Origin: Sphingobacteriales bacterium
GTDB lineage: Bacteria; Bacteroidota; Bacteroidia; Chitinophagales; JADJOU01
Reading direction: 5' to 3'
Length of the DNA: 64,000 nt
NCBI GenBank assembly: GCA_021297855.1
Contig: JAJTHM010000045.1
Location: 233 to 64,232 of the forward strand
Below are positions 14,504 to 25,000 of the stretch, piece by piece. Made by a program: the position numbers and the translations under genes. Below the pieces are notes generated by a model that worked only from the letters and a program-made list of their open reading frames with translations, did not search any database and was not told the origin of the DNA. Every line of letters starts with the position of its first letter. Position 1 is the first letter of the stretch.

Positions 14504-15199
14504 TTAAATACCATAACAGATTTGAGTTAGCTTATCTATAATTTTATTGAACCGAAGTTCTTGATCTTCATAAAAAAGATTACCCAATATTGCTTCTTGC
14601 TTCACATTATCTTGTAAAATATCTTGAAAACAAGCTTGTAAGTATTTTTTAACCTCAGCATCTGCTGATGAAATAAGTTCGACAATATTAGCGGTGTAAT
14701 TGAGAATGTAAACAATGTCTTCAAAATCATGACTTGTTCTTGGGTCAGAAATACCTCTGTCATAAAACGCAGTCAATTTAGTAGCTAAATAATATGGTAA
14801 GGAGAGGCATTTTATCTTTGTTCCGTCCAAATCTAATTCCAGCAATTGGCTAAACCCAGGTGCAAACCAAGGATTAGCGGATGCCCAACCTACTGCTTTT
14901 GTGGCCATCACATCTACTTTGATATCTTTATAGCGAAAACGACAAATAACATTGTCTTCGCTTGATTGATAAAAACCTTTTTGTATTAGGGTTGCTTGTA
15001 TTTTTTCCAATTCACTCAGGCTCGCAATCTCCATACTGATATCGATGTCTTTTGTTGGGCGAACATCGTCAGCCGAACTATCATCAATATACATACTCAC
15101 TACAGCACCTCCCACATAAACAACTTTATCGTTGAGTTCACCCAAGGCTAAAGCAATAGTGCGCGTTGCAATTCTATTAATTTGCGTGTTCTTTAGCAT
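14504..15199 (-). CDS. nucleotidyltransferase-fold protein (TA-toxin-like, AbiEii-like logic)
   Basis: Minimal NTase motif VGGAVVSMY...RPTKDIDIS. Overlaps the upstream wHTH gene by 7 nt. Confidence 0.55.
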   Translation of the reverse strand: MLKNTQINRIATRTIALALGELNDKVVYVGGAVVSMYIDDSSADDVRPTKDIDISMEIASLSELEKIQATLIQKGFYQSSEDNVICRFRYKDIKVDVMATKAVGWASANPWFAPGFSQLLELDLDGTKIKCLSLPYYLATKLTAFYDRGISDPRTSHDFEDIVYILNYTANIVELISSADAEVKKYLQACFQDILQDNVKQEAILGNLFYEDQELRFNKIIDKLTQICYGI

Positions 15200-15738
15200 A
15201 ATTTTTTGCGAAGAATTTCAATGGCTTTATTTTTTTCTCTTGCACGACCTACACGTAACGCATCACACAAAGCCATGTATTCATAAAATTCGGGATCTTT
15301 CAAACATGCTTCCGGTACTTTTTGATGCAAAGGTTCAATGGATTCACCACGCACTGTTCCTTCACCATAGGGCCATACATAAGCTTCTTCACTCACAATT
15401 TCTTGATTTAATGGTGGTGCTGAATGTGCCGTAGGTACACCTCTTACCTTTGCACCGAGCTGTTGTGGGTACACATAGCGCAAACCATGTTCTAAGAAAT
15501 CTAAAATAGAAAGTTTCATCAAGCGTTTTTTGTCTTTAGCTATCAAACCCGACATGGAAGAACGGTGCAGACTTTCACTTACCTCGCTGCCACTGATGCC
15601 CAGTTCGATAGCTAAATCTTTCATTTGCCAAGACGTATCTTTTTTGGCCGCTATTTTCAATAAAATTACTATGTCGTGTGGGCGCATGCCGCTATGTTTT
15701 TTCATTGGCGTCTCTATTAATTGCGACAAAGATAGCAA
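15193..15738 (-). CDS. winged-helix DNA-binding protein, partner of the NTase
   Basis: HTH-like MKDLAIELGISGSEVSESLHRS. Coupled to the downstream NTase gene. Confidence 0.5.
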   Translation of the reverse strand: MLSLSQLIETPMKKHSGMRPHDIVILLKIAAKKDTSWQMKDLAIELGISGSEVSESLHRSSMSGLIAKDKKRLMKLSILDFLEHGLRYVYPQQLGAKVRGVPTAHSAPPLNQEIVSEEAYVWPYGEGTVRGESIEPLHQKVPEACLKDPEFYEYMALCDALRVGRAREKNKAIEILRKKLC

Positions 15739-16858: not shown

Positions 16859-16906
16859 AGTTACAAACTCGCGCTAGCGGGGGGTTACAAACTCGCGCTA
16901 GCGGGG
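16859..16906 (+). repeat. 24-bp tandem duplication (x2)
   Basis: (A/G)GTTACAAACTCGCGCTAGCGGGG occurs twice, head to tail. Confidence 0.85.
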
Positions 16907-17053
16907 CTTCATCTATTCGTCATGGCGGCTCATCTACTCGCCTTGGTGGTTCATCTGCTCGTCATGGCGCCTTATCTATCCGTCATGGTGGCTCATCTAT
17001 TCGCCTTGGTGCCTCATCTATTCGTCATGGCGCCTCATCTGCTCGTCCTAGTG
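16907..17053 (+). repeat. 21-bp tandem repeat x7 (minisatellite)
   Basis: Seven contiguous units of consensus (G/C)CTCATCT(A/G)(T/C)TCG(T/C)C(A/T)TGG(C/T)G, with no spacers. Confidence 0.9.
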
Positions 17054-17074
17054 GCTATACTAGAGGCAAGGTCG

Positions 17075-17149
17075 GGTGATATGCTTATTTAGAGGGTAAA
17101 TTATAAATTTACTAACACAAGAGCATAGTAGGAGACTGTGCTCAGCGGG
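17075..17149 (+). repeat. 75-bp dispersed repeat, family D (copy 2)
   Basis: Direct-orientation match to 14339-14413. Confidence 0.8.
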
Positions 17150-17210
17150 ACGAGTGCTTGTGTGGCGGCTAGTACGACTTGGTAATGGTTATGACTGCGA
17201 AGTGTTAGCA

Positions 17211-17708
17211 TTATCTGTGTGTCGCTATTGATACAATTTTAAAAATATCTTGTCCTGCTCTTAAAGCATCCAAGAGTTGTTTGAACATAAATGCTGTTTC
17301 CATGTTCGTTTTCTCTTGAATCATCAAGAGTCTAGCAATTAAAATCAGAAATTTTATGCTATATTCTCCCTTGTCGGCAAGTGATTCATATTTCAGTGCC
17401 TCTTGATTTACTTCCTTCAACAAAGTTTCTACATTTAAAAGATTCATCCGCTCTTCTTCTGTCCTTAAAGGTTTAATATGTTCATTCCAAGCTGTAATTA
17501 AGAAGTCAAGAAATTGTTTAGTTTCTTCTTCGTTGGAGTGCATTTTCAAGAGTACGTCAACTGCCCAATGTATATGCTTAGGTGTTCTAATATTTGTCCA
17601 TCCTGATCTCCTTGATTCATCTTTTTGTCTGTATTTCAGAAGGAGGTCAAACTCAGAAAGAGTTCCTTTGTATACAGCTAAAACATATCTGCCGTTTACT
17701 AGATACAT
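17211..17708 (-). CDS. hypothetical protein in the position where a DpnII-type cassette would carry its endonuclease
   Basis: 165-aa ORF 40 bp downstream of the truncated dpnA-like gene. No motif recognised, and it does not resemble DpnII as I recall it. Confidence 0.35.
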   Translation of the reverse strand: MYLVNGRYVLAVYKGTLSEFDLLLKYRQKDESRRSGWTNIRTPKHIHWAVDVLLKMHSNEEETKQFLDFLITAWNEHIKPLRTEEERMNLLNVETLLKEVNQEALKYESLADKGEYSIKFLILIARLLMIQEKTNMETAFMFKQLLDALRAGQDIFKIVSIATHR

Positions 17709-17748
17709 GCCAAAGGCTGATTTCCTTTTGAAATCATATTTGGTAAAC

Positions 17749-18429
17749 TCATAAGATTAATTCATTTCCATATTCAAGAATTGGTTCTTCTACTAAAAAT
17801 AGTTCAAGTTCTTTTTTGTCATTGAAACCACCAATTTTTTGTCTGTAAGTAGTTGCTGTTTTTGGGTTTTCAATTTCAAGTTTTCTGTTTTTACTTATTG
17901 TCAAAAAATCTGCTTCTTGATCTATTCCTAAAAAGCGTCTGTTCGCTAAATTAGCTGCAATTCCTGTTGTCGAACTTCCTGTAAATGGATCCAAAATCCA
18001 AGCGTTTGGCTTTGTTGAAGCCAAAATTAAACGTGTCAAAACAGAAAGAGGTTTTTGAGTTGGGTGTTTTCCACAAGTTTTTTCCCAAGGTGCAATTGCA
18101 TTTAATTTCCAGACATCTTTCATTTGTTTGTCACCGTTAAGTTGCTTCATTAGTTTATAATTGAAGTAATGTGGGACCTTTTCACTTTTTCTCGCCCAAA
18201 TGATTTGTTCTGTTGAATATGTAAAATAGCGACAAGAAAAGTTTGGTGGTGGATTGGTTTTTTCCCAAGTAACAACATTTAGGATTTTAAAACCTAGTTC
18301 AGTTAAAATTTGTCCAACTGAAAAAATATTGTGTATTGTTCCGCTTATCCAAATGGTGGCATCATCTTTCATTTTATCGCGAACAGAAATTTGTTGGATT
18401 CTAACACACTTGAGTAATGTCAATTCCAT
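17749..18429 (-). pseudogene. dpnA: DpnA-like beta-class N6-adenine DNA methyltransferase lacking its N-terminal DPPY-containing part
   Basis: WISGTIHNIFSVG, GFKILNVVTWEKTNPPPNFSCRYFT, GKHPTQKP and ILDPFTGSSTTGIAA track DpnA from roughly residue 90 onward. No DPPY motif is present, and the upstream sequence belongs to other ORFs. Confidence 0.7.
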
Positions 18430-18622
18430 AAACTAAACTAAACAATTCTAAATCTTCTAGTTGATTGAATTCACAAACTTCATTAATTGAAAAATCATTT
18501 TTGTCTATAAATTCTCTTAGAAATTTTGAAATAATAATTTCCCGAATAGGAATATCCATACCCCAAAACAAGATATTATTTTGTTCTATCATATAGAAAT
18601 TATTACCATTACTTATTTCCAT
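18401..18622 (-). CDS. hypothetical 73-aa ORF bridging rhuM and the truncated dpnA
   Basis: ORF only. Overlaps both neighbours and may be junction sequence rather than a gene. Confidence 0.2.
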   Translation of the reverse strand: MEISNGNNFYMIEQNNILFWGMDIPIREIIISKFLREFIDKNDFSINEVCEFNQLEDLELFSLVYGIDITQVC

Positions 18623-19625
18623 ACTTTTTGATTTTTTTTACTTCTTTATCAAAATCAGAAATGAACTTTTGGTCTTGAATTCTTCTGAACTTTGAATATT
18701 CTGATTCCGCTTTTTTAATTGCCATCTCGTGAGATATTTTACCAGGATTGTTTAATAAATCGTAACGGTTTATTTTTAAAAATGAATCCAATGCTTCAAC
18801 CCATTCATTCATTTTCATTGGAATATTTCTTTCTGCTTGTAATTCAGCAAAATTCAAATAAAGTTCTACAAGTCTGTTCAATTCGCTTATTTCCTTTTCC
18901 GATAAATAGTTTTTTGCAATGTTTGTATCTGACTTTAGAATTTTTCCATCTGGCGAATTTTTCCAAGTAGTTAAGCCCATATTAGGATTGTCAGCATTTG
19001 CTCTACTTTCAATGATTTCAGCAGCTGTATTTCCTGTAATTGCCCAATGAAGTTTATTTTGAACGGTTTTGTAAAAGTTTAACGTCAGGTCTGATTTAAG
19101 GTCATAATCTATACTACATTGAGCATAAATGTCCGTTATTTTTTGGTAGAATCTTCTTTCAGAAGCTCGGATTTCCCGAATTCTCTCAAGTAACTCTTCA
19201 AAATAATCCTTGCCAAATACCTGACCACCTTGTTTCAAGCGTTTATCATCTAAAACAAATCCTTTGATGATAAACTCTTTTAGCGTTTTGGTAGCCCAAA
19301 TACGAAATTGAGTGCCTCTTTGAGATTTGATTCTGTATCCAACTGATATTATTACATCAAGATTATAATAGGAAACCTCATAATCTTTACCATCATCGGC
19401 AGTTGTTCGGAATTTCCGAACAACTTGATTTTCCTCTAATTCTCCTTCCTTAAAAACATTACTAATATGTTCACTTACCGTTGATTTTGACCTTTCAAAC
19501 AACTCTTGCATTGCCTTTTGAGTAAGCCAAACTGTTTCATCATTAACAAAAACGTCTACCTTTACTTCGCCATCTTGAGAAGTGTATAAAATAAAATCGG
19601 AATTACTTGGAGTTATGTTTGACAT
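18609..19625 (-). CDS. rhuM: RhuM family virulence/defence-island protein
   Basis: VWLTQKAMQELF, YYNLDVIISVGYRIKSQRGTQFRIWATKTLKEFIIKGF and ASERRFYQKITDIY are characteristic RhuM blocks. Confidence 0.85.
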   Translation of the reverse strand: MSNITPSNSDFILYTSQDGEVKVDVFVNDETVWLTQKAMQELFERSKSTVSEHISNVFKEGELEENQVVRKFRTTADDGKDYEVSYYNLDVIISVGYRIKSQRGTQFRIWATKTLKEFIIKGFVLDDKRLKQGGQVFGKDYFEELLERIREIRASERRFYQKITDIYAQCSIDYDLKSDLTLNFYKTVQNKLHWAITGNTAAEIIESRANADNPNMGLTTWKNSPDGKILKSDTNIAKNYLSEKEISELNRLVELYLNFAELQAERNIPMKMNEWVEALDSFLKINRYDLLNNPGKISHEMAIKKAESEYSKFRRIQDQKFISDFDKEVKKIKKYGNK

Positions 19626-19631
19626 CTTTTA

Positions 19632-19823
19632 CTATTCTGATTTTAAAAATTCTGTTTCAACATAATCATCAGCATCTAGTACAATTTCTTCTTTCTTGTA
19701 TAAATCTTGAATCTTTGAAAATGCTTCATCAGCAGAATTAGCTTCAATCTCAATAATTCTTGAAAGTGTTTCTTTTACTTCAATCTTAAATGTTTCCATA
19801 TTTGATTTTTTTATAATTACCAC
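19632..19823 (-). CDS. dpnD: DpnD/PcfM-like small protein
   Basis: FKIEVKETLSRIIEIEANSADEAFSKIQDLYKKEEIVLDADDYVETEF fits the DpnD/PcfM pattern. The start could instead be the internal METFK at 19799. Confidence 0.6.
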   Translation of the reverse strand: MVIIKKSNMETFKIEVKETLSRIIEIEANSADEAFSKIQDLYKKEEIVLDADDYVETEFLKSE

Positions 19824-20565
19824 GACTTACAAATTCAATTATACCTTTATCCCGTAATACTTGAAGTTGCTGTCTTATTTTGTCTTTGATGAAATTGTTA
19901 CTTGGGTATTTCAACTTGAGTTTATCCTCAAATTTATAGACATCTTCTAACGAAAAGGTTTCTTTCTTAATTGAATCAACACAAGCCATTAAATCTAAAA
20001 TCCAACCTTTTGAATCGATTGATTTTCCTCTTAAAAACAAAGTTTTATTAAAAGAGGATTCTACAATTTTCCTGTCAATTAATTTAGAATCTTTTATTAA
20101 AAAAACTTTACCTGCCTCAGCAACATTTGAAATGTCAATATTACAGCCAATCCAACCCGCACGTCTTGCAGTGGTTGATAGTGGTTTTCTTTTAATAATA
20201 ATTTCTGTTGTAAAAAACTGCTTTGGAATAATAAGGAAATTCTCAACTAGCCAATTATTAGAATAGGTTAAAAAGAAAAAATTAGGATTTTGATTTGAAT
20301 TTATCCTTTCAATCATTGTAGAATAAGCTCCGTCATTTATTGTAGTAGAAAGTTTTCCGTTTTTGCTTTTTAATTCAAATTCTTCTTTGCACTTTTTGCA
20401 ATAAAAATCTGCTACAGGTCTATTATTTTCAAATTCATTTAATGGTATTTCTCCGCAGCAAGGACAATATGAGTTTTCTTTAACCCAATTCTCAGTTAAA
20501 ACTCTAGCGATTTGCGAATTACTAGAATATCCCTCCGCAAGTTTTGTATTAAAACTCAAGTTCAT
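19786..20565 (-). CDS. dpnC: DpnI-like methyl-directed (G6mATC) type IIM restriction endonuclease
   Basis: From the internal Met (MNLSFNTKLAEGYSSNSQIARVLTENW) the product aligns along its whole length with DpnI as I recall it. Shared blocks: NRPVADFYC, EEFELKSK, TINDGAY, NPNFFFLTY, RKPL..TARRAGWIGCNI, and the C-terminal wHTH IRQQLQVLRDKGIIEF. The 41-codon extension in the ORF track overlaps dam and is probably not translated. Confidence 0.85.
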   Translation of the reverse strand: MNLSFNTKLAEGYSSNSQIARVLTENWVKENSYCPCCGEIPLNEFENNRPVADFYCKKCKEEFELKSKNGKLSTTINDGAYSTMIERINSNQNPNFFFLTYSNNWLVENFLIIPKQFFTTEIIIKRKPLSTTARRAGWIGCNIDISNVAEAGKVFLIKDSKLIDRKIVESSFNKTLFLRGKSIDSKGWILDLMACVDSIKKETFSLEDVYKFEDKLKLKYPSNNFIKDKIRQQLQVLRDKGIIEFVSRGNYKKIKYGNI

Positions 20566-20566
20566 T

Positions 20567-21526
20567 TTATGCAGCGAGTTTTGCGTTAGGGATTGCAGTG
20601 GAAATCCTTTTGTGAGGAACGAACAAAAGATTGGAACGGAAAGCCCGCCCGAAGGGAACGCCCAAATAATATTTTTCAGGATTTGCATTGATGCTTCTTC
20701 TTGCCTTTACTCTTGAAATAGAAAATTCAGAATAAATTTCATCAAAAAAATTGTCGTTTGTGTCTTTTCCCTTCACATCTGAATTGCTCAACATCCATTT
20801 GTGTCCTTGCTTTTCAAGTTTCGAGCAAAAATTTCTTAGTCTTATTTGTTCCTCATCATTGAATTCATCTTTTGCATAAGAATTGAAACTTGATGTATTA
20901 CTCAATGGTTTATATGGTGGATCAAAATAAAAGAATGAATTAACAGAAGCGTTATTTAAGGTCTCTACATAATCTCCACAGAGAATTTCTACTTTCTGTA
21001 AAACATTACTTACAGCCATAATATTCTGGTCATCACAGATGGTGGGCTTCTTATAACTACCCATTGGAACATTATAACCATTGCTTTTATTTACTCTGTA
21101 TAAACCGTTAAAACAAGTGCGATTGAGAAAAATAAACAAAGCGGCTTGTCCGCTTTTTTCTTCTTTTCTTGTGTTGTACAATTCTCTTTTTATGTAGTAA
21201 TATTCCTTTTTTTCTTCATCCTTTCCTTCAAGGTCGTGATATTCATTTTGAAGAATTTGGAGAATAGAAATAAGTTCCTTTGGCTTTGACGCTATGATTC
21301 TATAAGCGTTTATCAAATCAGTATTTATGTCGTTAATAACAGCATTTTCTAATTTCGGAAAATTATCAAGCATCCAAAATAAAACAGCCCCACTTCCAAC
21401 AAATGGTTCTATATATGTAAACTTTTTGCTAGTTATTTCAATTGGCAGAGACTTTTCAATCTCTGAAATTAGTTGGGTTTTTCCACCTGCCCATTTAAGA
21501 AAAGGTTTTGCAGTTCCGTTTTTCAT
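20567..21526 (-). CDS. dam: Dam/DpnM-like alpha-class N6-adenine DNA methyltransferase with a non-canonical C-terminal tail
   Basis: PFLKWAGGK, EPFVGSGAV (motif I), NRTCFNGLYRVN, FYFDPPY (motif IV) and ARRSINANPEK. The last ~34 aa show no Dam-like sequence. Confidence 0.85.
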   Translation of the reverse strand: MKNGTAKPFLKWAGGKTQLISEIEKSLPIEITSKKFTYIEPFVGSGAVLFWMLDNFPKLENAVINDINTDLINAYRIIASKPKELISILQILQNEYHDLEGKDEEKKEYYYIKRELYNTRKEEKSGQAALFIFLNRTCFNGLYRVNKSNGYNVPMGSYKKPTICDDQNIMAVSNVLQKVEILCGDYVETLNNASVNSFFYFDPPYKPLSNTSSFNSYAKDEFNDEEQIRLRNFCSKLEKQGHKWMLSNSDVKGKDTNDNFFDEIYSEFSISRVKARRSINANPEKYYLGVPFGRAFRSNLLFVPHKRISTAIPNAKLAA

Positions 21527-21813
21527 ATTAATGTTTTTAAAATATTTTTTGCTTTATTCAAACCTTGCATTGCGAAAGGGTCATTTTCAATGGTGTCGAG
21601 AAGCTTGTCACTAAGCCAAAGAGTAAGCAATTCTTCGTCCGTTGCGTTGTAAAATTTAGCAAGTTTAACTACTTGTTCTCTGGTCAGTCTTCTTTCGCCT
21701 CGTTCAATTTTACTAATTAAAGCGGTGTCGATTTCGAGATAAGCCGCAACCTGTCGTAGTAGTATACTCTTCGATTCTCTTATTGTCCTTATTTTTTCTC
21801 CGAGTGAATTCAT
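21523..21813 (-). CDS. XRE-family HTH regulator (controller-like) heading the R-M operon
   Basis: IRESKSILLRQVAAYLEIDTALISKIERGERRLT HTH. 4-nt overlap with the dam start. Confidence 0.75.
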   Translation of the reverse strand: MNSLGEKIRTIRESKSILLRQVAAYLEIDTALISKIERGERRLTREQVVKLAKFYNATDEELLTLWLSDKLLDTIENDPFAMQGLNKAKNILKTLI

Positions 21814-21966
21814 TGTACACAGCTTGATTTGTCAATATGTGTCAAATGTAGCCAAAATAATTATTCCGTTGTCTATTAATTGTCGAGAAATTATTCACAT
21901 TCTGGGTGCGTTGGCTAGAAAGCGGCTTCCCGAAAAGTCGTGACAGGCTTTTTGGTTTTGCGATGG

Positions 21967-22036
21967 GTATTTACTCCCACACGTGCGGCATAAGATTTAT
22001 ATCTATTGGCATAAGACATAAATCTCATTGGTAATA
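21967..22036 (+). repeat. dispersed repeat, family F (ACTCCC(A/G)CACGTGCGG core), copy 1
   Basis: Resembles 58687-58748. The ends GGTAT...CATTGGTA(A/T)TAC are shared. Confidence 0.4.
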
Positions 22037-22064
22037 CTTGGAAAAATAATAATAGATTTGTCTA

Positions 22065-25000
22065 ATGTTAAATTTACAATTGCGAATGTATCAATCGAAA
22101 GAAAACAGATTTAAGCATCCTATTTTGGGCTATTTCCCCTTGACTCTTTTATTTTTTACTCTCTTATGGTTTGAAACGCCTCTTTTAGCACAAGAAACGA
22201 GCTTCAAAACCAATGGTCCTGATGATTTCAGAGAGAGCCATTACGCCCTTATCCATGCTAAGGTATACAAAGATTTCCAAACCATTTTGCCAAATGCTAC
22301 CGTGGTGATTAAAAACGGAAAAATTGTCGATATCAATACTAGTGGAACTTTCCCGGTCGGAGCTGTGGTTCGTGATTTGAAAGGAAAATTCATTTATCCT
22401 TCTTTTATAGATATCTACTCAGATTATGGTATGCCTAAGGTCAAAAAAGGAACCAAAGAAGAAGGAGTACAATACGAATCCAATACTAAAGGGGCTTATG
22501 GCTGGAATCAAGCCATACACAGTGATTTCGATGCTAGTAGAAATTTTGTAAAAGACGACTCGGCTGCTATGGTTTATCGCAAGCAAGGTTTTGGTACCGT
22601 CGTATCGCATCAGAAAGATGGTATAGCCAGAGGAACAGCCACTCTCGTGCTACTGGGCAATGAAAAAGAAAATGTATTGATAAAAAATAGCCGAATGGCT
22701 TCGGTATTTTCTTTTGATAAAGGGAGCTCCACCCAAGAGTATCCAACTAGCTTGATGGGCTCTATAGCGCTACTTCGCCAAACACACCTAGATGCCAATT
22801 GGTATTCAAAAGCGTTGGCCACCAAGGAGTACAACATCCATTTAGAGGCCTGGAATGAGAATAAGAAACTCATTTCCTTTTTTGATGCAGGAAACTGGGA
22901 AACTATTTTGCGAGCAGATAAGGTCGGCGATGAATTTGGCATTCAATATATATTTCGAACCGATGGGAGCGAGTATCAACGTATAGAGGAAATCAAAAAT
23001 ACCAAAGGCAAACTCATTGTGCCGCTCAACTACCCAAAGGCCTATGAGGTGAGCGATATATACAAAACACAATTTGTCGATTTAATCGAGATGAAGCATT
23101 GGGAGCACGCTCCTGCTAATTGTACCTATTTGGATAGAAATAAAATTGATTTTGCCATTACATCGGATCAATTGGAAAAGCGCGATGACTTCTTAAAAAA
23201 CCTTCGAATAGCATTGAAATATGGGATATCAGAGTCGGCTTTGCTCAAAGCTTTGACCTATAATCCTGCACAATTTTTAAATATATACAATGAGTTTGGA
23301 AGTATAGAAAAAGGAAAATGGGCGAATTTCTTTATCTCAGATAAAAATATATTTGATGAGCGCGCGCAGATAATAGAAAACTGGGTAGGGGGTAAAAAGT
23401 ATATCATTCAAAAAATAGAAGACTATGATATTAGGGGCAGCTATCGTTTATCGACCCTCGCAGGAATACCTTCCTTATCGACTAAAAAAATGATTTTGAG
23501 CGGGGAAAAAAACGCACCGAAAATGCAAGTAATATTTACCGATACCCTCAAGATAGATGTCAAACTGGAACGCAATGGCAAGGATATCGCTTTTTCAATG
23601 ATTCCTTTTCCTTCAGACGAGAATAAAAAATATTTTTTCACAGGCACCATAGACCCAGCAAGCCATAGTTGGCAAGGCATAGGGAAGTACCCAAATGGCT
23701 CTGAGTTCAAATGGATAGTTCAGCGGGATAGCAGCTACACGGACACGAGCAAGCGAAAAATGGATAGTGTGGCTATCGCATCGCTCAGTAAAATAACCTA
23801 TCCTATGCATGGATACGGATTTGATAAACTACCTATACATGAAAATGTCTTATTCAAAAATGCTACGCTCTGGACGAATGAGGCTGAAGGAATTTCACCG
23901 TTATCCGATTTAATAATAAAAAATGGAAAGATAGTCCAAGTGGGCAAAAATCTATCTTGTGCAGATTGCAAAATAGTGGATGCCACAGGCAAGCATTTGA
24001 CAGCAGGTATCATAGATGAGCATACGCACATAGCGCTGCGTGGGGTCAATGAAGGCTCAAAGAGTATCAGCGCTGAGGTGCGTATGGGCGATGTCATTAA
24101 TCCTTCAGATATCAATATCTATAGACATTTAGCTGGTGGAGTTACAGCTGCCCAGTTGCTTCATGGCTCAGCCAATGCTATAGGCGGTCAGTCTGCCTTA
24201 ATAAAAATGCGTTGGGGCTACACTGGAGATCAAATGAAGATTGAAGGTGCCGATGGATTTATAAAATTTGCATTAGGAGAAAATGTTAAACAGTCCAACT
24301 GGGGTCCTAAATTTAATACGCGTTATCCGCAAACGAGAATGGGTGTGGAGCAGACTTATGTCAATTATTTTACCAAGGCTCAAGAGTATTTGAAAAATGT
24401 GCAAACAGACCCCAATAATACGAGAAAGGATTTGGAGCTTGAAGCGATGGCTGAGATTTTGAATAAGAAAAGATTCATCACTTGCCACTCTTATGTTCAG
24501 TCTGAAATCACTATGCTGATGAGGGTTGCTGAGCGGTTCAATTTTAAAGTAAATACATTTACCCATATTCTCGAAGGATACAAAGTGGCGGATAAAATGA
24601 AAAATCATGGGGTGTACGCCTCTTCATTTTCAGACTGGTGGGCCTATAAGTTTGAAGTGATTGATGCGATCCCGCAAAATGCAGGCATTTTGACCCAAAT
24701 GGGTGTCACGACCGCTATCAATTCCGACGATGCGGAGATGGCACGCAGGCTCAATCAGGAAGCGGCCAAAAGTGTGAAGTATGCCAAAATGAGCGAGGAA
24801 GATGCCTGGAAAATGGTTACCCTCAATCCTGCGAAAATGCTTCATTTGGATCATAAAATGGGTAGTCTTAAAGTGGGTAAAGATGCCGATATAGTGCTGT
24901 GGTCAGACAATCCATTATCCATTTATGCTGTAGCAGAGCGCACCTATGTGGATGGCAAGTGCTTCTATTCATTAGAACAAACCAATACCTTGAATGAACG

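Follow-up and report, generated by a model that had tools for sequence, protein, structure and literature searches.

The window, a stretch of 64,000 nucleotides of contig JAJTHM010000045.1 from a Sphingobacteriales bacterium, carries between 17.2 and 21.8 kb a single string of packed minus-strand genes. In this string, a Dam/DpnM-type methylase (hereafter M1) directly precedes a DpnI-like endonuclease, which depends on methylated DNA for cleavage. The initial annotation had drawn attention to the pair as potentially self-lethal. The features of the string are the following.

21523-21813, minus strand: XRE-type helix-turn-helix gene, 96 amino acids (PF13560 and PF01381; PADLOC 'control protein')
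20567-21526, minus strand: M1, D12/Dam methylase, 319 amino acids (PF02086, E 2e-67; DpnM 2dpm, E 1e-48)
20672-21526, minus strand: M1 body, codons 1-285, homologous to intact alleles, with FxGxG and DPPY motifs
20567-20671, minus strand: foreign tail of M1, codons 286-319 and stop, translated from Flavo-1 and replacing the RGELNELLITNY end
20578-20654, plus strand: Flavo-1 repeat/RNA motif (RF01705, 52.9 bits), antisense to the operon
19786-20565, minus strand: DpnI-like endonuclease, 259 amino acids (4esj, E 6e-102; PF06044 and PF17726)
19632-19799, minus strand: DpnD-like small gene, 55 amino acids (PF14207, E 2.5e-14; gene calls on identical contigs)
18609-19625, minus strand: RhuM-family gene, 338 amino acids (PF13310, E 3e-112; PADLOC candidate defence family PDC-S05)
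18401-18622, minus strand: open reading frame of 73 amino acids between RhuM and the M2 remnant; relatives about 40% identical at the same position in L013 and L019 (L numbers designate the loci fetched)
17749-18429, minus strand: M2 remnant, DpnA-like N6_N4 methylase (PF01555 profile positions 39-221 only)
17211-17708, minus strand: open reading frame of 165 amino acids, homologous to a 184-residue gene that accompanies M2 in intact DpnII-type operons

The XRE-type gene heads the string and overlaps the start of M1 by 4 nt, and the remaining genes lie downstream on the same strand, so the single operon described in the initial annotation stands. The TAA stop of M1 (20569-20567) is separated by one base from the ATG of the DpnI-like gene (20565), and the DpnD-like gene follows, both as described there. 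Two genes farther down the string, RhuM and the clipped DpnA-like methylase (hereafter M2), had been missed. Intact DpnII-type operons are headed by the same XRE gene, and it is the controller (C) protein of an ancestral restriction-modification operon.

The DpnI-like nuclease and the replaced end of M1

The DpnI-like protein aligns to R.DpnI without gaps over residues 1-254. It comprises a PD-(D/E)XK domain (PF06044, residues 1-179, E 8e-80) and a winged helix (PF17726, residues 184-253, E 3e-35), and matches PADLOC mREase_II over 1-255 of 256; the end-to-end resemblance to DpnI noted at first is therefore real. Four conserved cysteines are presumably zinc ligands. The protein also keeps N48, D53, E64, K66, D78, R126, L129, R135, W138, and G140. 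In R.DpnI, residues D53, E64, and K66 are catalytic, and residues N48, D78, R126, L129, R135, W138, and G140 read the methyl group and the bases (PMC4117772). With all catalytic and Gm6ATC-reading residues retained in the alignment, the nuclease looks intact, as initially noted, and, from its sequence, like a fully competent Gm6ATC-dependent endonuclease. The ratio of nonsynonymous to synonymous substitution rates (dN/dS) of its gene is 0.03-0.1.

M1 contains both catalytic motifs that had been reported in it (EPFVGSGAV and FYFDPPYKPL), as well as the N-terminal KPFLKWAGGK, and it matches PF02086 over profile positions 1-253 of 253. Its description as intact-looking does not hold. In a DNA alignment of the junction, homology to intact relatives ends at Lys285, and the 34 residues that follow (residues 286-319, YYLGVPFGRAFRSNLLFVPHKRISTAIPNAKLAA) are a translation of the Flavo-1 element, in place of the C-terminus. 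Intact relatives, which are 85-93% identical to M1, end ...PEKRGELNELLITNY. Among the 120 closest homologues of M1 (77-100% identity), 76 end ...RSINANPEKRGELNELLITNY, and 44 have a Flavo-1-encoded tail instead. The break points of the tailed proteins differ slightly (after PEK, PEI, or PEKRGEL), and the element is read in frames that vary among relatives, indicating that the tail is not conserved as protein.

Comparison with more distant methylases locates the loss at the same end. The alignment of M1 to DpnM stops at residue 266 of 284 and that to E. coli Dam at residue 254 of 278, and the PADLOC methylase profiles miss their last 13-14 positions. M1 lacks the C-terminal strand after ...RSIN(A/S)N (KRGELNELLITNY in close relatives), and with it a complete Dam/DpnM fold. 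We take the lost segment to be the last strand (beta-7) of the class I methyltransferase fold, which lies within the central sheet. AlphaFold2 was run for the window M1 and for an intact allele (P0027) on the same 60-sequence alignment. In the model of the intact allele, strands are predicted at residues 272-279 and 291-298, in 10-residue blocks with a mean predicted local distance difference test score (pLDDT) of 73-78, and the loop at residues 281-287 falls below 50. In the model of the window M1, no strand is predicted at residues 265-319, and the pLDDT is below 50 from residue 265 to the end. The contrast between the two models is supportive of a lost strand, not proof of it.

The clipped M1 proteins mostly end ...KLAA, ...KIAA, or ...SAA (positions 20567-20581 in the window) and thereby resemble the ssrA degradation tag; these include L033 and L035, in which the junction is not Flavo-1. 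The -AA endings may reflect the conserved GCNGCATAAAATG at the start of DpnI.

The ancestral operon and the junctions of the inserted cassette

A scan with M1, limited to one genome per species, returned 33 loci. Where M1 is complete, the gene order is XRE, M1, R.DpnII (PF04556, E 1e-95), variable genes (DndB-like and others), and M2. The M2 of these intact operons is a DpnA-like protein of 292 residues with the motif FADPPYF, and the 184-residue gene often lies alongside. In the loci with a Flavo-1-tailed M1, the order is DpnI, DpnD, sometimes RhuM, and then an M2 remnant. RhuM is present in L011-L014 and others, and absent from L022 and L048-L050.

The window belongs to the second group. Its M2 corresponds to residues 81-292 of 292, at 92-95% identity to intact M2 by tblastn, and the homology runs from 18387 downstream; M2 residues 1-80, including FADPPYF, have no tblastn counterpart in any frame of the window. 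The remnant therefore lacks the succession of N-terminal DPPY, recognition region, and C-terminal motif I that defines the DpnA-like class. A tblastn search of window positions 17000-22100 with the R.DpnII proteins of two intact relatives gave nothing significant (best E 0.04); 14 related loci do have an R.DpnII-family gene. In DNA alignments, the left junction falls after M1 codon 285 in the window (codon 285 or 288 across loci) and the right junction at M2 codon 81. Because both junctions map in this way, the segment from the 3' end of M1 through R.DpnII to the 5' end of M2 has been replaced by Flavo-1, DpnI, DpnD, and RhuM. A DpnI-family gene thus stands in the place of a methylase operon, with truncated methylase remnants at both junctions, as in an insertion of the drg type (see below).

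The right junction is variable. The start of M2 is never kept in DpnI loci, and its 5' end falls at no fewer than 20 different points, from codon 5 to codon 200. Some M2 copies in DpnI loci have stop codons, or DSPY or NPQY for DPPY, and some are lost altogether. M2 is complete in most DpnII-type loci; two (L028 and L047) look broken.

The gene beyond M2 is damaged as well. Homologues of the 184-residue gene lie near M2 in L023 (9738-10292) and L026 (12447-13001), with a counterpart at 17211-17752 on the minus strand of the window. Its 5' end is frameshifted there: a first frame runs ATG...MSLPNMISKGNQPLACI-stop at about 17752-17699, and the 165-residue frame restarts at MYLVNGRY.... This frame has tblastn matches in L023, L026, L027, and L030, and full-length forms exist in relatives. 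Pfam and PADLOC gave no match for this family, nor for the 73-residue frame at 18401-18622.

The left junction is marked by Flavo-1, which sits precisely where M1 meets DpnI. It is the sole Rfam family above threshold in the whole window (gathering threshold 42 bits), and the match covers model positions 1-76 of 76. Flavo-1 occupies the equivalent position in six related DpnI loci (51-59 bits), and none was found in 12 DpnII-type loci. It precedes DpnI even where M1 is gone (L074 and L082). Flavo-1 was also seen in L011-L014, L021, L022, and many of L051-L113; in L020 it stands before another nuclease, a PLD-winged-helix fusion. Flavo-1 may mark cassette junctions. Two other roles were considered and set aside. 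A search for further copies in the window found none, arguing against a locally amplified repeat, and the Flavo-1 region is on either strand no more stable than shuffled sequence (z 0.6-0.7), arguing against a hairpin that gates DpnI translation. Flavo-1 has been described as an orphan Bacteroidota motif with no assigned function (PMC9723704). A promoter and terminator scan of 17000-22100 gave counts at chance level, the sigma-70 rules used being a poor fit to Bacteroidota.

M1 state and downstream nuclease in related loci

A survey of homologous loci, proposed in the initial annotation, finds the same adjacency recurrently, and M1 before DpnI is always without its C-terminus. Over all fetched loci, M1 followed by a nuclease dependent on N6-methyladenine (m6A) has lost the C-terminus in 45 of 45 cases (43 with DpnI and two, L020 and L035, with a PLD-winged-helix fusion), and M1 followed by an R.DpnII-family endonuclease has kept it in 14 of 14. 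The truncations are of several kinds: the two Flavo-1 junctions, residue 271 in L033, residue 270 in L035, and other positions in L111 and L130.

A second survey was anchored on DpnI and is thus unbiased as to M1. It gave 73 informative loci with DpnI 70-97% identical, which fall into these states of M1.

M1 body to residue 262 or beyond, always without the C-terminus: 30 loci
Shorter M1 remnant, 24-153 amino acids: 8 loci
N-terminal leader only (..KPFLKWAGGK..), in a short frame that runs to the DpnI ATG wherever it was read: 18 loci
No trace of M1: 17 loci
Complete M1: 0 loci

The leader left at the end of this series is 10-25 residues long. Given these states, this DpnI lineage descends largely from insertions into DpnII-type operons, and M1 erodes stepwise. 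The XRE gene is absent from several related DpnI loci. The island occupies different chromosomal places in different genomes, and in the pairs examined, near-identical M1 genes belong to DpnI-type and DpnII-type operons whose chromosomal contexts differ. An allelic swap at one chromosomal site, in the pneumococcal style, was rejected on this ground.

Several other elements were observed in and around these loci. The PLD-nuclease fused to a DpnI-type winged helix (PF13091 and PF17726, 264 amino acids; L020 8952-9746 and L035 866-1660) directly follows a truncated M1, in the usual place of DpnI, and is presumed to be a second kind of m6A-dependent nuclease. A small phage-type Dam family methylase with the motif NPPY (PF05869, 166-179 amino acids) lies on the opposite strand in some loci with an m6A-dependent nuclease: L020 (9938-10447, minus), L035 (1855-2355, minus), and L044 (11930-12469, minus). 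If these methylases were specific for GATC, the conflict would be reopened there. After M2 in DpnII-type loci of different taxa, the same apparent reading frame of about 90 amino acids (MPTLRSHTHLQATQSQAQ...) recurs (L017 5642-5914, L015 12706-12969, and L018 5945-6217); its appearance is that of a conserved element, non-coding or repetitive, at the island's right-hand end. Just downstream of the DpnII-type operon of Sphingobacterium thermophilum there is a group II intron (RF00029 and RF01999; L027 12457-13564, minus).

In the window itself, an AbiEii-family toxin gene (14504-15199, minus; PF08843 on the identical contig L001) and an overlapping upstream reading frame (15193-15738, minus) lie about 2 kb from the operon, and the region looks like a small defence island. 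Between the operon and a SOUL-family gene, positions 16860-17056 hold tandem repeats, in which two exact copies of a 24-nt unit are followed by a 21-nt unit repeated about 6.6 times (77% matches). Across the whole window, four palindromic tetranucleotides are depleted (observed/expected: CCGG 0.36, GATC 0.54, ACGT 0.59, and GGCC 0.62), which suggests past or present restriction pressure at those sites. The value for GATC fits a history of GATC restriction and does not discriminate between a DpnI-type and a DpnII-type state.

The probable cassette replacement and its alternatives

We consider it likely that the locus is the scar of a replacement of a DpnII cassette by a DpnI cassette, in which both methylases were disabled, and not a self-killing module. 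The ancestral state would be the one seen in relatives, with XRE controller, DpnM-like M1, R.DpnII, variable genes, and DpnA-like M2. A module of Flavo-1, DpnI, and DpnD, with or without RhuM, would have displaced the endonuclease gene, and with it the M1 3' end and the M2 5' end. Neither methylase would then act on GATC, and host GATC would be unmethylated. The DpnI-like enzyme would be harmless to the host and, by homology, cut incoming Dam-methylated DNA. DpnI may be expressed from the old promoter and start region of M1, under XRE where XRE is retained. The anatomy of the junction suggests that M1 is probably a translated leader, the ribosomes finishing its frame 1 nt upstream of DpnI. The module may spread between genomes by means of the M1 body as homologous arm, with DpnD and RhuM travelling with DpnI. 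Such a role would keep M1 healthy-looking until its deletion to a short leader, the promoter-proximal end being kept as an expression platform for DpnI.

Among the ways out of the conflict listed in the initial annotation, the silent death of one gene is thus favoured, with the difference that both motifs of M1 are present and the C-terminal beta strand is missing instead, and that M2 is clipped too. The case for a dead M1 is that its terminal strand is lost, that the association with the downstream nuclease is perfect, that M2 is always disabled, and that a DpnI locus can dispense with M1. Disabling M2 in every DpnI locus would serve a purpose only where GATC must stay unmethylated.

Several points weigh against the cassette replacement as we describe it. 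The loci are phylogenetically non-independent, so that 45/45 versus 14/14 overstates the statistical weight of the association. Both AlphaFold2 models are of low confidence (mean pLDDT 58.7 and 67.3), and the alignment is shallow. Most Flavo-1 tails hold an NLLFV-like stretch that could in principle replace the lost strand; we infer from sequence that M1 is most likely inactive. The replacement also leaves unexplained how a GATC-methylated recipient survives the arrival of DpnI. Finally, M1 bears signs of constraint. Its pairwise dN/dS is 0.05-0.1 at a synonymous divergence (dS) of 0.5-2. Long M1 copies always have an open frame with all motifs, whereas M2 remnants show stops, a difference that could point to continued selection on the M1 protein. 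Where intact alleles are invariant, DpnI-linked M1 has 0.72 changes per sequence versus 0.53 (P = 0.02), a small excess, so that these sites are nearly as well kept.

These signs of constraint are also what favours the best-surviving alternative, that M1 without its C-terminus no longer methylates but is selected, as a translated leader that brings ribosomes to the start of DpnI, as a regulator of DpnI that binds GATC or S-adenosylmethionine, or as a homologous arm that bears the promoter. It overlaps with the cassette replacement and differs from it only in present-day selection on the protein. Wherever M1 is long, its frame stays open up to a stop only a few bases from the DpnI ATG, and short remnants end at the ATG as well. 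However, translational coupling would select for an open frame and not for an amino-acid sequence. M1 is also dispensable, being 153 residues or shorter, or absent, in 43 of 73 DpnI loci, and the excess changes in DpnI-linked M1 cluster at residues 260-280, beside the junction. The excess is compatible both with decay close to the junction and with a body that is largely constrained.

The low dN/dS of M1 is not evidence of function, because M2 fragments, which cannot methylate, give the same values (0.03-0.09), because DpnI-linked and DpnII-linked M1 alleles are interleaved, and because M1 is a mosaic. In the tree of 120 sequences, the two classes of allele require 24 parsimony changes, and some pairs are 0.4% apart. 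L049 and L050 have an identical DpnI cassette in different genomes, and their M1 is a mosaic of patches that are 100% identical and patches that are 80-90% identical. We therefore rejected dN/dS as a test of M1 function. The M1 body behaves like an arm for recombination, swapped again and again with intact alleles, and has spent most of its history in working operons. On balance, it is unlikely that the protein is under selection today.

A more far-reaching reading makes the remodelled M1 a conserved partner of DpnI, either a weak, unstable, or conditional GATC methylase or a GATC-binding regulator, within a methylate-then-cut defence or suicide switch that acts on infection. If so, the Flavo-1 tail, often ending -LAA, would keep M1 off in healthy cells, and the open frame, the intact motifs, and a dN/dS near 0.07 would reflect present-day selection. 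We regard such a partnership as improbable. Its specific form, a triggered module in which M1 still has GATC methylase activity, conditional or not, is quite improbable. M1 would be held low by XRE or by an unstable, ssrA-like -LAA/-IAA tail, and infection would raise M1 and let DpnI destroy the DNA of phage and host. Every catalytic motif of M1 is conserved, the arrangement is conserved in many Bacteroidota, the endings of the tails recur across different junctions, and the NLLFV-like stretch resembles the lost ELLIT strand, all of which would suit such a module. However, M2 is disabled in every DpnI locus, which is sensible only if methylation must be absent; M1 is often deleted while DpnI stays; and XRE is missing from several of the loci. 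As for the tail, its frame is variable and it is not conserved as protein, it has no predicted strand, and its -AA ending can be accounted for by the conserved start of DpnI. The suicide module that the initial annotation had entertained is therefore not needed and is without positive support. Strict separation of expression by XRE, also entertained there, is unlikely, because a single operon holds both genes at a distance of 1 nt and XRE is lacking from several related DpnI loci.

That both enzymes are active at different sites, either because M1 has a target other than GATC or because the DpnI-like enzyme needs another methylated site, is very improbable. Some winged-helix enzymes of the DpnI family do tolerate m6A outside GATC (PMC11037411). 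However, intact alleles of M1 partner DpnII-family endonucleases, and among solved structures M1 is closest to DpnM. The DpnI-like protein, for its part, aligns to DpnI with no gaps and retains all the residues that read Gm6ATC. Differing specificities, another of the options first listed, would moreover leave the constant loss of the M1 C-terminus and of the M2 start unexplained. An artefact of assembly or binning, which the metagenome-type origin of the contig might suggest, is practically negligible, since at least 22 contigs of independent assemblies (JGI, NCBI metagenome-assembled genomes, and Logan) carry the identical DpnI protein among the same neighbours, and dozens of diverged loci share the gene order.

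The pneumococcal DpnI and DpnII cassettes, as Lacks and colleagues are said to have found in 1986 (cited in PMC3812788), are alternative and mutually exclusive, and reportedly trade places by recombination in the flanks that they share. Each cassette is exchanged whole there, between chromosomal flanks common to both, and is not known to leave a methylase remnant. The analogy drawn in the initial annotation is apt: DpnM-, DpnA-, and DpnII-family genes here oppose DpnI and DpnD, as dpnM-dpnA-dpnB oppose dpnC-dpnD, with the same logic of exclusion. Here, however, it is within a DpnII-type operon that the swap took place. The methylase genes act as the flanks and are both left as clipped remnants; the order is M1-R-...-M2 with an XRE controller; and the chromosomal context varies by genome.

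The closest precedent is the dam-replacing gene drg (NmeBII) of Neisseria, a DpnI-family enzyme inserted in dam. What remains of dam is truncated, drg is toxic to dam+ E. coli, and in some strains it is adjoined by a DpnII-B-like gene (PMC4269198). As with drg, a Gm6ATC-dependent nuclease of the DpnI family lies within a methylase gene that is truncated, and the two activities are mutually exclusive. Whereas drg has for its target a solitary dam beside leuS, a full DpnII-type operon with controller, two methylases, and endonuclease was the target here, in a host that belongs to Bacteroidota. In addition, M1 loses just its last ~25 residues and so looks intact, a Flavo-1 repeat forms the junction, and a second methylase is clipped at its 5' end.

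A 2024 survey in Front Microbiol mentions genes for PD-(D/E)XK-winged-helix proteins that adjoin a frameshift-inactivated N4-methylcytosine or N6-methyladenine (4mC/6mA) methylase, with a Bacteroidota example in CP064983.1, and describes PLD-winged-helix fusions (PMC11037411). The loci described here resemble those cases in having a DpnI-like gene beside an inactivated methylase, and the fusions of L020 and L035 are of the kind described. Beyond the single sentence devoted to such cases, the present comparison adds the ancestral DpnII-type operon, the C-terminal replacement by Flavo-1, the clipped M2, and the erosion series. The theme is thus known and the detail is new: the replacement of a C-M1-R-M2 operon with both methylases clipped, a recurrent left junction at Flavo-1, a variable right junction, and erosion to a leader peptide.

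The apparent paradox of the locus is resolved if a gene that passes motif checks and matches Pfam in full can still be broken at its last strand. Because motif and Pfam checks miss such a terminal loss, a conflict between a methylase and a methyl-dependent nuclease should be called only after full-length comparison with intact relatives. The same loci advise caution with tests of selection, since, with alleles that are recombination mosaics, even dead fragments have a dN/dS below 0.1. The orphan Flavo-1 motif gains a concrete context as a recurrent cassette junction. Methylase genes serve as recombination arms, and the erosion series is visible from near-complete methylase to leader peptide. 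GATC-methylating and Gm6ATC-cutting systems therefore replace each other widely in freshwater and other Bacteroidota too.

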